NCBI GenBank assembly: GCA_050250895.1
Contig: JBFWNU010000001.1
Span: 1,838,884 to 1,902,883, forward strand
DNA length: 64,000 bases
Reading direction: 5' to 3'
Source of the DNA: Vulcanimicrobiota bacterium
Lineage (GTDB): Bacteria; Vulcanimicrobiota; Xenobia; Xenobiales; JADMJV01
Shown here piece after piece: positions 41,964-45,802 of the stretch (positions within the stretch are counted from its first letter, which is position 1; each line of letters opens with the position of its first letter). The notes under the pieces were generated by a model that saw nothing but the letters and a program-made list of their open reading frames with translations, did no database searches and was not told the DNA's origin. A program made the translations under genes and the position numbers.

Positions 41964-43544
41964 CTAGAGTGTCACCAGTTTAGCGTCTTCAATACCTTCC
42001 AAACGGCGAACCTCTTCCAATACGGCCGCTGTAGGCTTCTCGTCCACCGACATTACCATGACGGCCCGGGTCCGCGCCTCGGCCCGGCCGACCTGCATTT
42101 CGGCCACATTGATATCCTCGCGGCCGAGCACCGTGCCCACGCGGCCGATGACTCCGGGCTGGTCGTTCTGCCAGGTGATCAACTTGTGACCCTCAAGAAT
42201 CACCGACAAACGCAGGCCATCGATGCTCACCACTCGGGGCTGGTCGTCCTCGAAGACGGCTCCTACACAGCAGCGCTTGGCCCGGTCGGTCTCGACCGTC
42301 ATTTCGATCACGCTGGAGTAGGCCGACAGCGCGCCACCTTTGCTCTCGGTGACATCCACGCCCCGCTCTTGAGCCACCAGTTTGGCGTTGACGAAGTTGA
42401 CGGTCTCGGGGCTGCCAGCCGCCAGAATGCCTTTCAAAGCGGCCGTGGTCAAAAAGGATACCTGGGAATCGGCCAGGCGTCCGCGATAGACCACCTGGAC
42501 CCGCCGCAGTTTGCCGCCCGCGGTGCAGGCCAGAAAGACTCCCATTTTCTCGGCCAGGTTCAGATAGGGCTTGAGAAAGGCCAGGACCTTCGGAGGAACA
42601 TAGCTGATGTTGACGGCCGAGCGGGGTGGACCCCCGGCCAGAACCTCGACGACCTGCTCGGCCACATCGGTGGCCACCCTCAGCTGCGCCTCTTCGGTGG
42701 AGGCGGCCAGATGGGGCGTGGTCACCAGCCGGTCGGTGGAACGCACCGGCGAGTCCTTGGCCGGCGGCTCAGACTCGAACACGTCCAGGGCGGCTCCCCC
42801 CAGTTGCCCCGAGTTGACGACCTCGACCAGGGCGGCCTCATCCACGATGCCCCCTCGGGCGCAGTTGATGAGAAAGGCGCCTTTCTTCATTTTGGCCAGG
42901 CGCTCGGCATTAAACAGGTTCTCGGTTTCGGGCACTTTCGGCACGTGCACGGTGATGAAGTCGGCCTGGGCCACCAGTTGGTCGATCTCGGCCGAAGTGG
43001 CGCCCGTGCTGGCGATCATCTCGTCGGAAACGAACGGATCGTGGGCCAGCACCTTCATCTTGAACGAAGCCGCCCGCGAGGCTACCTCGCGGCCGATCCG
43101 GCCGAACCCCACCACGCCCAGCGTCTTGTTGTAGAGTTCGTGGCCGGTGAAGGTCTTGCGGTCCCACTCGCCGCGCTCCATCGAGGCGTGCGCCCAGGGC
43201 AGCCTGCGAGCCGCCGCCAACAGCAAGGCCATGGTATGCTCGGCCGCCGAAATCGTGTTGCCTTCCGGCGAGTTGATCACCAGGATACCGCGGGCGGTGG
43301 CCGCCTTTACATCGACGTTGTCTACGCCCACGCCGGCCCGCCCGATGACCTGCAGGTTCTTGCCAGCTTCGATGACCTCGGCGGTGACCTGGGTCGCACT
43401 GCGAATCAACAAGGCGTCGTAATCCCCAATGATGCTGACCAGTTCTTGCGGACTCAAGCCCGTCTTCACATCCACCTCGGCGGATTTTCGCAACGCCTCG
43501 AGGGCCTCTTCGGCCAGAGAATCGCTCACCAATATGCGTGCCAC
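41964..43544 (-). CDS. serA: D-3-phosphoglycerate dehydrogenase (long form with ASB and ACT domains)
   Basis: GRAGVGVDNVD, GFGRIG, INCARGG, TPHLAASTEEAQ, NDQPGVIG. Confidence 0.96.
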   Translation of the reverse strand: MARILVSDSLAEEALEALRKSAEVDVKTGLSPQELVSIIGDYDALLIRSATQVTAEVIEAGKNLQVIGRAGVGVDNVDVKAATARGILVINSPEGNTISAAEHTMALLLAAARRLPWAHASMERGEWDRKTFTGHELYNKTLGVVGFGRIGREVASRAASFKMKVLAHDPFVSDEMIASTGATSAEIDQLVAQADFITVHVPKVPETENLFNAERLAKMKKGAFLINCARGGIVDEAALVEVVNSGQLGGAALDVFESEPPAKDSPVRSTDRLVTTPHLAASTEEAQLRVATDVAEQVVEVLAGGPPRSAVNISYVPPKVLAFLKPYLNLAEKMGVFLACTAGGKLRRVQVVYRGRLADSQVSFLTTAALKGILAAGSPETVNFVNAKLVAQERGVDVTESKGGALSAYSSVIEMTVETDRAKRCCVGAVFEDDQPRVVSIDGLRLSVILEGHKLITWQNDQPGVIGRVGTVLGREDINVAEMQVGRAEARTRAVMVMSVDEKPTAAVLEEVRRLEGIEDAKLVTL

Positions 43545-43600
43545 TCTACACCTCCTACAGGGTGCTCCGCATTACGGGGGGGGCCGGGGTGGATCCTTCT

Positions 43601-44253
43601 GGCGACGACTGTCGTCGTCGAGAAGGGGAGCGTCCGCTTCGCGGCCGAGAAGGGAGCCGGGCGGTCGCCCGGAGATGGGAGCGGCGACGACTGCCGTCGT
43701 CGAGAAGGGAGCGTCGGCTTCGCCGCCGAGAGAGGAGCCCCTCGGCTTCGCCGGGGAGATGGGAGCGGCCACCTTCGCTATCGCTTTCGGTGGCCGAGAG
43801 GGGAGCGAGGTTCGCTGGGCTCACCTCGAGTCTTGAGGTACTCGACGCGCGACGACTGCGTCGTCGAGAGGGGAGCGTCCGCTTCGCGGCCGAGAAGGGA
43901 GCCGGGCGGTCGCCCGGAGATGGGAGCGCTGGCTTCGCTTGCGCTCGCCAGCGAGAAGGGAGCGAGGTTCGCTGGGCTCACCTCGAGTCTTGAGGTACTC
44001 GACGCGCGACGACTGTCGTCGTCGAGAGGGGAGCGTCCGCTTCGCGGCCGAGAAGGGAGCCGGGCGGTCGCCCGGAGATGGGAGCGGCGACGACTGCCGT
44101 CGTCGAGAAGGGAGCGTCCGCTTCGCGGCCGAGAAGGGAGCCGGGCGGTCGCCCGGAGATGGGAGCGCTGGCTTCGCTTGCGCTCGCCAGCGAGAAGGGA
44201 GCGAGGTTCGCTGGGCTCACCTCGAGTCTTGAGGTACTCGACGCTTCGCGTCG
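43601..44253 (+). repeat. Modular hairpin array with constant AGA(A/T/G)GGGAG linker
   Basis: 21 hairpin modules of 5 types separated by 18 purine linkers (counted by hand). Confidence 0.9.
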
Positions 44254-44261
44254 TAACCCTG

Positions 44262-44650
44262 GTCGGCCGCAGGCCGAAATCTCCGCGCGACGCGCCGGCT
44301 CCTTTCTCAGCGGCGTCAGCCGCTGCTGCTTGTCGGCCGCAGGCCGAGATCTCCGCGCGAAGCGCCGGCTCCTTTCTCAGCGGCGCCAGCCGCTGCCAGG
44401 CCGAGATCTCCGCGCGAAGCGCCGGCTCCTTTCCCAGCGGCGTCAGCCGCTGCTGCTTGTCGGCCGCAGGCCGAGATCTCCGCGCGAAGCGTCGGCTCCT
44501 TTCTCAGCGGCGTCAGCCGCTGCTGCTTGTCGGCCGCAGGCCGAGATCTCCGCGCGAAGCGCCGGCTCCTTTCTCAGCGGCGCCAGCCGCTGCCAGGCCG
44601 AGATCTCCGCGCGAAGGGTCGGCTCCGTTCTCAGCGGCGCCAGCCGCTGC
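44262..44650 (-). repeat. Six tandem 57/70-bp palindromic units; hairpin-linker array in inverted orientation
   Basis: AGGCCGA(A/G)ATCTCCGCGCGA at 44271, 44341, 44398, 44468, 44538, 44595; minus strand reads hairpin-AGAAAGGAG-hairpin. Confidence 0.9.
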
Positions 44651-44662
44651 TCCCCGGCCCTC

Positions 44663-44691
44663 TAGACAGGTCCTGTCCACATGTGTATTAT
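44663..44691 (+). promoter_or_regulatory. Sigma-70 promoter of tRNA-Ser
   Basis: TAGACA-17 nt-TATTAT just upstream of the tRNA. Confidence 0.7.
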
Positions 44692-44704
44692 GGAACGCAC
44701 ACAC

Positions 44705-44793
44705 GGAGTGGTGGCCGAGCGGCTCAAGGCGCACGCCTGCTAAGCGTGAGGGGGGAAACTCCCACGTGGGTTCGAATCCCACCCACTCCGCCA
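44705..44793 (+). tRNA. tRNA-Ser (GCT)
   Basis: GGAGTGG/CCACTCC acceptor stem, anticodon loop CTGCTAA, long variable arm, GGTTCGAATCC, G+CCA. Confidence 0.95.
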
Positions 44794-44800
44794 ACTCCAG

Positions 44801-44824
44801 CGGGGACGGCAGGTCCCCGTTTTT
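44801..44824 (+). terminator. Intrinsic terminator after tRNA-Ser
   Basis: CGGGGAC-ggcag-GTCCCCG-TTTTT. Confidence 0.75.
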
Positions 44825-44830
44825 GCATGT

Positions 44831-45802
44831 ATGCGATACGAACGAGCCGACCTGATCGTGGTAGGAGGGGGCCTGGTGGGTAGCCTGGCCGCTCGTGCCG
44901 CTGTGGCCCGCGGGCTGACGGTGCGTGTCATCGACGAGGGACGCCCGCGTTTGCTCGAGCCCGTGACTTACCACTGCGCCTACGACGAGGCCGACCTGGT
45001 GCGTTGGTTGGAGCCTTCGCTGAGCGTCTGGCAAGAGTTCGATTCGGCCCGCTACCCGCTCGACCTGCAGGCCTTCGAGCGGCTCGAGGTGGGGCCTGAA
45101 CTGGGCGGTTTGCGCGCGGCGCTCGAACTGGGTGGAGAGGCTCATCGGGTGCTGGATTCGGAAGAAGCCAATCGGACTTATCGCTATCTGCGTCTGCCCG
45201 AGGGGTGGACGGCCATTCGCATGGTCCGAGCGGGGCGACTGAATAGTCCGCAGCTGCTGGCCCATCTTTGGGAGAACCTGGCCGGGGTGCACTCGGACAC
45301 CCAGGTTCGCTTTATCGACTTCGAGCACGAGTCGCCCACGGCGGTGAGTTATGAGGTGGCCTTTCGCGGGCGTTACCTGCTGGTGGCCGCCGGCCAGGCC
45401 ACGGCCGGGTTGTTGGGTCTGGATTTGCCCGGGGGGGTCGAGCGGCGGGCCGTCTTCTTCGGAGGCGGGGAACCTCTTTATGGGGGGGCTCGCCTGGAGA
45501 AGAACTGGGAGTTCGAGCCGGGTGACCAGGGCTTCGAGCTAGTAGGGCCCGACCAGGAGATGCCGGAAGAACTCAGACGGTTGGCGCCGAGTCTGTTCGC
45601 CCACCGCCTCGGTCAGCGACAGACCCAGGAACAGGAACGCCCCTATCTGGGCGAGCTTGATTTTCGCTCGGACATCGGCGGTTATACGGCGCTCGGGGCG
45701 GGGCACCGGGGATTGGCACCGCAGTTGGCCGAGGTTGCCATCGAGCGCTTGTTGGGCGAGCGCGGGGTCCCGGCCGCCCTGGCCTACGGCCGCTCGGAAT
45801 AG
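44831..45802 (+). CDS. FAD-dependent oxidoreductase (DAO/sarcosine oxidase-like, divergent)
   Basis: DLIVVGGGLVG...VRVID dinucleotide-binding fold; LLVAAG. Confidence 0.7.
   Translation: MRYERADLIVVGGGLVGSLAARAAVARGLTVRVIDEGRPRLLEPVTYHCAYDEADLVRWLEPSLSVWQEFDSARYPLDLQAFERLEVGPELGGLRAALELGGEAHRVLDSEEANRTYRYLRLPEGWTAIRMVRAGRLNSPQLLAHLWENLAGVHSDTQVRFIDFEHESPTAVSYEVAFRGRYLLVAAGQATAGLLGLDLPGGVERRAVFFGGGEPLYGGARLEKNWEFEPGDQGFELVGPDQEMPEELRRLAPSLFAHRLGQRQTQEQERPYLGELDFRSDIGGYTALGAGHRGLAPQLAEVAIERLLGERGVPAALAYGRSE

Follow-up and report, generated by a model that had tools for sequence, protein, structure and literature searches.

A hairpin-and-linker array beside serA belongs to a lineage-specific repeat family associated with PF05635 genes

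What is the run of small hairpins that separates a serA-like gene from a tRNA-Ser gene in the genome of a Vulcanimicrobiota bacterium? The array occupies positions 43601-44253 of a 64,000-nt stretch of contig JBFWNU010000001.1 (hereafter the window, to which locus positions refer). An earlier note on this DNA read it either as an undescribed family of single-stranded DNA elements resembling repetitive extragenic palindromes and bacterial interspersed mosaic elements (REP/BIME) or as a multivalent RNA that acts as a protein sponge. We find that the flagged array forms the longer of two arms in a mosaic repeat element of ~1.06 kb (43601 to about 44656) that is non-coding and carries no gene. The array is probably an arm of a young, lineage-specific DNA repeat of the REP/BIME or short tandemly repeated repetitive (STRR) kind, with its structure kept on the strand that carries cGNAg triloops, without an RNA product at this locus, and belonging to a repeat system around genes of the PF05635 (23S_rRNA_IVP) family.

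On re-reading the sequence, the module order ABC AB'C'D'E ABCDE ABC ABCDE was borne out, as was the count of 18 purine linkers, which take the form AGA(A/T/G/GA)GGGAG. The array comprises 21 units, 18 of which end in this linker; the other three are copies of module E, each followed by a 'tail' (AGTCTTGAGGTACTCGACGC...) in place of the linker. The periods detected by Tandem Repeats Finder are 26, 81 and 158 nt. The claim that variant modules keep their pairing holds for B' and D'. Between B and B' a C-G pair is replaced by G-C, a compensated swap, with a T.C juxtaposition in both, and the stems of D and D' differ in sequence, each being perfectly paired. In C', pairing requires a 2-nt bulge. 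The loop of B-type modules reads TTC on the plus strand and GAA on the minus strand, as the note had remarked. Folded as DNA, both strands are more stable than all of 20 shuffles (plus strand, -193.1 kcal/mol, z = -4.47; minus strand, -177.7 kcal/mol, z = -3.22). The locus was also rightly said not to be a CRISPR (clustered regularly interspaced short palindromic repeats) array, since its constant word is only 9-11 nt long. Such arrays are marked by 23-55-nt repeats, unique spacers and cas genes; here the 'spacers' between the constant words are self-complementary and recur.

Strict linkers delimit 245 segments, 126 of them distinct, and this delimitation makes no reference to pairing. Some segments are perfect mini-hairpins with many different stems; others are xxTCGC-loop-GCTCxx units that contain two pyrimidine-pyrimidine juxtapositions. 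Watson-Crick pairing reaches 83.8% in the 17-nt units (37 distinct), compared with 53.1% in shuffles (maximum, 60.6% in 1000 trials), and 94.4% in the 15-nt units (21 distinct), compared with 68% (maximum, 79.4%). Up to four pair types occur at a stem position. The stems covary, and the suggestion that structure is kept through sequence change is thus upheld by the comparison with shuffles.

The loops and mismatches differ between the strands. On the purine-linker strand, loops read TGC (151), TTC (55) and TTT (24), and the non-Watson-Crick juxtapositions are T.C (30) and C.T (28) as against A.G (3) and G.A (1). On the complementary strand the same loops become cGCAg and cGAAg triloops and the same juxtapositions become G.A pairs. 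This asymmetry favours the pyrimidine-linker strand as the one that folds. A review of mini-hairpin DNA (PMC13037366) gives melting temperatures of 76.5 C for d(GCGAAGC) and 39 C for r(GCGAAAGC), and states that conventional thermodynamic models miss the stability of mini-hairpin DNA. Structure kept on the pyrimidine-linker strand would fit single-stranded DNA best.

Read on the purine strand, an arm consists of (hairpin-linker) x n followed by a terminal module, for which we propose the grammar (C-stem / T-N-C triloop / stem-G + AGAnGGGAG) x n, then T1-T2-T3. In the family, the terminal module runs T1 (module E), AGTTTTTGAGGTACT, T2 (CGACGC-TTC-GCGTCG), TAAnCnTGG and T3 (GCGGC-TTC-GCCGC). The terminal module of this locus has 61 BLAST matches in the genome, always 3' of arrays in the purine sense, and T2 occurs no more than 130 nt downstream of 30 of 61 array runs. 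The flagged coordinates end within the element, at the last base of T2; T3 and a second arm, with its linker on the minus strand, lie beyond them (Table 1). Arm 1 also contains two internal, truncated copies of the terminal module (about 43795-43858 and 43952-44015). Arm 2 carries cGAAg and cGCAg mini-hairpins on the plus strand in units of 57 or 70 nt (repeat periods 57, 70, 127 and 197), and the two arms are 70-82% complementary, through the linkers (inverted repeats I1-I16). The order of arms follows a rule throughout the genome. Same-strand steps (251 ++ and 191 --) compare with 23 strand changes, 20 of which run from + to - and 3 from - to +, and all 27 mixed clusters of hairpin-plus-linker units start with + units. 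Given this fixed polarity, each strand reads a purine arm first and a pyrimidine arm second.

We examined the region around serA in 13 relatives. Ten of these (G001, from the same genus, and nine more from the family) carry serA and tRNA-Ser as divergent neighbours, 100-160 nt apart, with no array between them; the remaining three have no tRNA there. A CTACG...TCCTTCT motif and the -35 box of the tRNA promoter (T[G/A]GACA) lie a few bases apart in the relatives and 1.06 kb apart here. Because the motifs that flank the short spacer of the relatives also flank the element, a lineage-specific insertion or outgrowth between two promoters is indicated: as judged from this comparison of loci, the element inserted or grew in this species-level lineage only, within the 100-160-nt serA/tRNA-Ser spacer. 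This copy contains no N. Contigs from sludge metagenomes (four DNA runs) represent a related strain, ~94-95% identical, that carries arrays. These contigs join unique flanks to the array, serA to 58 nt of arm 1 and arm 2 to the tRNA, and skips of 59 and 250 nt within them reflect different copy numbers; they are short-read contigs, no single one of which covers the entire element. The joined flanks and the differing copy numbers argue that the arrays exist as real DNA, are young and vary in copy number. A run of 10 N interrupts another of the arrays (C1:519992-520030), and copy numbers elsewhere may be uncertain.

The flagged locus is one of many in this genome (9.5 Mb, 62.7% G+C, 17 contigs, 99.64% complete). 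A genome-wide search for linker plus hairpin, which the earlier note had called for, revealed a dispersed family of at least 56 loci. There are 359 strict linkers in 92 clusters, and the 72 clusters of at least four linkers together hold 537 linkers. A two-linker pattern, GGGAGC-N11-25-GAGADGGGAGC, matches 208 times in the genome and 0 times in a reversed-sequence control. No called gene is overlapped by 54 of the 56 clusters of at least three hairpin-plus-linker units, and the gene contexts of the 56 are convergent in 16 cases, tandem in 26 and divergent in 11, with 3 at contig edges. With the two-linker pattern, each of 40 relatives yields 0-1 matches, on a par with the backwards control. 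With a three-linker pattern we retrieved 48 loci among 185,579 species genomes and a further 100 on metagenome contigs, none of which (0/48 and 0/100) has hairpins between the linkers; these matches are unrelated plain tandem repeats, and records of the source genome itself may be absent from these public collections. Among the genomes searched, the family is, by these sequence patterns, restricted to this lineage. A literature search, with most subscription journals outside its reach, found no paper describing it.

Some candidate signals were rejected. Loose regular expressions for the linker were dropped because the reversed sequence gave as many or more matches, an excess that we attribute to Glu-rich coding repeats and to a linker that reads nearly the same backwards. 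Glu/Ala/Pro-rich coding repeats such as GAGGAAGCCCCCGCCGAGGAGCA units (C1:2494021, C3:729552 and C13:63467) mimic loose linker patterns, and the control scan also brought up a separate tandem repeat family from C1:3045008 onward, with ~55-nt units such as GAGGCAGAGCGGGCTTGCTCCGGGG...GTGGGAGCA(A/T)GCTCCGG. A TAG or CTAG target site is too weak to claim. The stop codon is TAG in 15 of the 23 runs that follow a co-oriented gene, compared with a genome share of 40% from a crude gene caller, and TAG occurs within 60 nt of 26 of the 61 runs, compared with 36% of random intergenic 60-mers. Stop-codon use by the same caller is TAG 2874, TGA 2868 and TAA 1509; this TAG share is high for a 63% G+C genome and may be an artefact of the caller. 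No recurrent neighbour gene emerged from an all-against-all comparison of 216 flanking proteins from the 56 loci, in which the largest family had four members and the PF05635 genes were missed, left out by the gene caller or by locus merging.

The genome encodes three PF05635 genes, all on contigs other than that of the flagged array, and each of the three lies between two complete elements of the family. In gene orientation, these loci read purine arm, centre, pyrimidine arm, a ~70-nt leader, the gene, and then purine arm, centre and pyrimidine arm again, and the linker and terminal module of the flagged element also flank all three genes. The three proteins are only 55-57% identical, which implies that the loci did not arise by recent copying of a single segment. 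For one protein, the match to the pentameric Xanthomonas S23p structure 2gsc has E = 4e-24. The genomic surroundings are unremarkable (M13 peptidase, isocitrate lyase/malate synthase and ammonium transporter genes, among others). PF05635 is related to the Avd protein of diversity-generating retroelements, according to PMC10053308; when that context was checked, no reverse transcriptase was found beside the three genes. The leader, conserved before all three as ...TGGACA(T/G)(T/A)CGTTCGACGGGA...GAAGA..., begins with TGGACA, which resembles the -35 box of the relatives' tRNA promoters.

PF05635 is rare in the phylum (12 of 401 genomes) and was not found in any of the family's other 15 genomes. 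Elsewhere, short tandem repeats stand on both sides of the genes, rich in G or purines on the upstream side and in reverse-complement form on the downstream side (a polarity judged by eye). In one relative, G018, the bracketing repeats are AGATGGGAG, which is the linker word of the flagged array, and GAGATGGGAG is common to the flagged element and the G018 flank. The pattern (GGGAGAT)n has 309 matches in G018 compared with 3 in the control, and 0 both in this genome and in G001; the G018 heptamers often form purine-then-pyrimidine composites directly after stop codons. Among the five genomes of its genus (g4), G018 alone has gene and repeat together. In genus g1, this genome has PF05635 genes and arrays, and G001 has neither. 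All four genomes of genus g26 (G054, G059, G063 and G066) have PF05635 genes, and the flank word of one of these genes is (GCGTGAC)3. Each of these low-GC genomes contains 600-2,200 matches to (GCGTGAC)3 (control, 0); outside cyanobacteria, this is an STRR-like expansion of very large size.

We counted inverted 9-mers common to both sides of PF05635 loci. At least two were found at 19 of 22 loci compared with 39 of 520 random control intervals, and at 15 of the 22 the count is above four, the highest in any control. The 19 comprise 8 of 9 loci from other Eremiobacterota, 3 of 3 from this genome and 8 of 10 from plasmids of cyanobacteria and Gemmatirosa. The Eremiobacterota set consists of nine full-length loci, with 11 partial or contig-end matches excluded, and the plasmid loci are 10 of 23 records, picked for taxonomic spread and not at random. 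Both plasmid loci that fail still have a tandem array on one side. Insides of operons also hold such genes. PMC3936711 reports 18 23S_rRNA_IVP genes inside cas loci, and we observed a PF05635 gene within a cas locus in plasmids of Anabaena, Pseudanabaena and Picosynechococcus. In Nostoc edaphicum pNe_5 and at other plasmid loci, PF05635 genes are wedged into operons with gaps of 35-215 nt. The ribonucleotide reductase beta and alpha genes enclose one of them (on the opposite strand), and others occupy the cas6/cas4 and cmr2/cmr3 junctions. New in this work are the insertion established by orthologous-site comparison, the identity of the linker with the PF05635 flank repeat of a relative, and a controlled test of flanks across phyla; the literature search found no paper that ties PF05635 genes to flanking or dispersed short repeats.

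Against known systems, the first half of the earlier proposal fares well in most respects: the family is dispersed, intergenic and lineage-specific, its pairing is kept and it has a GNA-loop strand, but it has no GTAG head and no RAYT gene. The REP/BIME elements of enterobacteria and pseudomonads (RAYT, Y1 HUH) are, like the element, short GC-rich palindromes in high copy that are nearly always extragenic, and form mosaics with conserved linkers that are lineage-specific and variable between strains. Their GTAG/CGTC head and RAYT gene have no counterpart here: units are framed GGAG-C...G-AGA, 43601-44253 contains 0 GTAG and 0 CTAC, and the RAYT profile PF01797 has 0 matches in the 99.64%-complete genome (in a control search the family was recovered from 6 of 14 known genomes). 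Neighbouring REPs alternate in orientation, whereas the units of the element all point the same way within an arm. The element's stems also vary freely, its constant parts being the 9-11-nt purine linker and the cGNAg cap, and a defined terminal module closes each arm.

The STRR heptanucleotide repeats of heterocystous cyanobacteria, reportedly described by Mazel and colleagues in 1990, resemble the element in being dispersed, intergenic, strand-asymmetric short tandem repeats. G018 has arrays of this kind, (GGGAGAT/GGGAGTA)n, with the same word and the same purine-then-pyrimidine arms as the element. In the element, by contrast, the words are separated by hairpins of 13-31 nt, and the plain heptamer so frequent in G018 is absent. 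No printed link between STRRs and PF05635 genes was found in the literature search.

A third likeness is to the 23S rRNA intervening sequences of Leptospira and Coxiella that bear an open reading frame (ORF). According to PMC4990558, a PF05635 (S23p) gene lies there between complementary flanks able to form a long stem; in Coxiella the S23p ORF is inside an intervening sequence whose terminal inverted repeats make up a 28-bp stem. The paper also describes a patchy, selfish-like distribution in which ORF-less versions are much commoner than ORF-bearing ones, as for the element, and cites an old idea that the ORF serves mobility. The intervening sequences sit in rRNA, whereas the elements lie between protein or tRNA genes, and they have a single 28-bp stem where the elements have arrays of short repeats or mini-hairpins. 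The flagged copy also lacks the ORF: it shares the flank word and arm order of a PF05635 cassette but has no PF05635 ORF inside, and the one long ORF in 43545-44700 matches no Pfam family.

The picture that we favour would make the element a selfish or nearly neutral DNA repeat, whose pyrimidine-linker strand would fold as single-stranded DNA into cGNAg mini-hairpins with G.A juxtapositions. Its linker would descend from the heptamer repeat (GGGAGAT)n that brackets genes for PF05635 proteins (23S-rRNA-intervening-sequence or Avd-like four-helix-bundle proteins), and the flagged copy would be a gene-less derivative. Because the linker shares its word with the PF05635 flank repeat, the PF05635 protein, encoded at three other loci, is the likeliest partner for upkeep and spread. 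That this protein binds, spreads or maintains the repeats is a tentative idea, drawn from the association. Equally speculative is its generalization, that PF05635 proteins (S23p, the cyanobacterial 'four helix bundle proteins' and the relatives of Avd) are dedicated partners of dispersed short-repeat arrays. We hypothesize that each PF05635 gene might form part of a small selfish cassette, with a purine-rich repeat arm on one side of it and the complementary arm on the other, and that the repeat word would spread as gene-less copies, as plain heptamers in most hosts and punctuated by hairpins here. The flagged array would then be a non-autonomous copy, and the pentameric protein may bind single-stranded repeat or hairpin units and so lead to their copying or protection.

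Several observations weigh against this account. The PF05635 link is correlational, and the genes of this genome lie between complete elements, not inside one. Other Eremiobacterota PF05635 genes have plain repeats without mini-hairpins, which occur near them at background density (20 loci in 11 genomes). The co-occurrence is weak: G057 has a few similar heptamers (seven matches) yet no PF05635 match at E<=1e-10. The fragmentation of metagenome-assembled genomes can hide repeats. Strand asymmetry tells which strand folds, not whether it folds as DNA or RNA, and the nearest-neighbour DNA model ranks the purine (+) strand as the more stable by the energies given above; GNA loops and G.A pairs earn no bonus in this model, and the shortfall of conventional models noted above may explain the ranking. 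Gene calls come from a crude codon-usage caller. Finally, 23 of the 61 runs begin no more than 75 nt after the stop codon of a co-oriented gene, and the mixed clusters, found in 11 convergent, 13 tandem and 2 divergent contexts, are placed as a role at RNA 3' ends would also predict.

Such a role would have the paired arms transcribed at gene ends and folded into long branched stem-loops that protect mRNA 3' ends or stop transcription both ways, as in enterobacterial REP/BIME, with the family spreading because such gene ends are useful. The positions just described, with mixed clusters enriched between convergent genes, would suit it, as would arms that are complementary through their linkers and a minimum-energy fold of the whole element with 188-218 pairs across the arm junction (both strands, DNA and RNA parameters; a figure without a shuffle control). 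The G018 heptamer composites, too, start right after stop codons. We nonetheless consider an RNA-level element unlikely, although for the family as a whole a role at RNA 3' ends is still a serious rival. The flagged copy lies upstream of two divergent promoters, such that neither neighbour should transcribe it, and orientation relative to genes is inconsistent across the family: 11 clusters are in divergent contexts, and a co-oriented gene follows only 1 of 9 clusters composed of '-' units alone. No U-tract terminators (0) were found, and the triloops are of the DNA-favoured cGNAg kind, not the GNRA or UNCG tetraloops typical of RNA.

Far less credible is the multivalent sponge, in which a plus-strand transcript would present its 18 GGA/GGAG linkers to CsrA or, by Shine–Dalgarno mimicry, to 30S subunits. 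The genome has one csrA gene, as the note had asked, and the linkers hold A-N-GGA, but CsrA does not track the arrays: it is found in 6 of 21 genomes including this one, and the five relatives that have it (of 20 searched) lack arrays, with 0-1 pattern matches. More than 50 dispersed copies, and an orthologous locus that is empty in 10 relatives, do not suit a sponge gene either. CsrB and RsmZ resemble the element in having many GGA words separated by hairpins; they are single conserved small-RNA genes with their own promoter and terminator and GGA in loops, none of which is true of the element, whose GGA words fall between hairpins and on the strand with destabilizing T.C and C.T mismatches. 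No CsrB or RsmX/Y/Z match appears even at E<=10. The arm-2 linker AGAAAGGAG is an exact complement of the 16S 3' tail ...CCTCCTTTCT, from which the arm-1 linker differs by one G.U, but 96 of the 359 strict linkers hold a T that is unable to pair with this tail, and the likeness is therefore probably a by-product of a GGAG-rich word. In an Rfam scan of the element, the only matches were sub-threshold ones to M23 RNA (RF03006) in arm 2, with no Csr/Rsm or other family. Five such matches fall at 44301-44600 (-), the best at 34.1 bits compared with a gathering threshold of 41.2. They arise because two GC hairpins precede G(A/G)GAAAGG there; M23 RNA as described (Weinberg et al. 2017, PMC5737381) likewise places GGAAAGG after two GC hairpins. 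No M23 peptidase gene lies downstream of the element, and the resemblance is one of composition.

An assembly artefact or a protein-coding repeat is barely conceivable, since, despite the 10-N gaps in some other arrays and an 889-aa ORF (42186..44855, +) that spans the element, the flagged copy has no N, independent sludge contigs join its unique flanks to the array, the unit periods of 25-31 nt are not multiples of three, and the ORF has no Pfam match and overlaps serA on the opposite strand.

The element sits upstream of both of its divergent neighbours (Table 1). The serA-like gene starts with GTG preceded by AGGAGG, and the CTACG...N~17...TCCTTCT motif beside this start, kept here and in most relatives, may be a non-canonical promoter or a serA leader element. 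We found no promoter or terminator belonging to the element itself: the sole promoter-like site is that of the tRNA, and terminators numbered 0. At this locus, to judge from its sequence, the element probably makes no product and probably does no more than separate two promoters with a cruciform-prone stretch.

Table 1. Features of the element and its surroundings, with positions in the window
Feature	Position	Strand	Basis or detail
serA-like D-3-phosphoglycerate dehydrogenase, left neighbour	41964..43544	-	Pfam 2-Hacid_dh_C 1.6e-64, PGDH_inter 4.5e-30, ACT 3.5e-12
Putative ancestral serA leader/promoter stretch, ends ...GGATCCTTCT, left insertion boundary	43545..43600	-	motif kept in relatives
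Arm 1, mini-hairpin modules A-E and 18 AGAnGGGAG linkers	43601..44202	+	sequence, repeat families D2-D7
Arm 1 terminal module T1-T2-T3	44202..44277	+	sequence; BLAST copies in genome
T1, module E hairpin	44202-44224	+	followed by spacer AGTCTTGAGGTACT
T2, CGACGC-TTC-GCGTCG	44239-44253	+	followed by TAACCCTGG
T3, TCGGCC-GCA-GGCCGA	44263-44277	+	
Arm 2, opposite polarity, six G(A/G)GAA(A/C)GGAGC linkers	44278..44651	-	CTCCTTTCTC when read on +
Right insertion boundary ...CCCCGGCC|CTCTAGACA and tRNA promoter	44652..44691	+	
Sigma-70-like tRNA promoter TAGACA-17-TATTAT	44663-44691	+	relatives: TGGACA/TAGACA-17-TATACT/TATCAT, same place
tRNA-Ser(GCT), right neighbour	44705..44793	+	ARAGORN; Rfam tRNA 60.8 bits

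Taken alone, the array would be one more lineage-specific REP-like repeat, albeit with an unusually strict grammar and no known enzyme. In practice, such arrays break assemblies and can be mistaken for CRISPR arrays or structured RNAs. The linker of the array, however, connects two features that for about 30 years have lacked an explanation: dispersed short tandem repeats of the STRR type and the PF05635/S23p four-helix-bundle proteins, which occur in rRNA intervening sequences, within cas operons and at hundreds of other sites. Were the association causal, the PF05635 family would gain a testable function, binding to its own flanking repeat, and the contrast between genomes full of such repeats and sister species without any would be explained.

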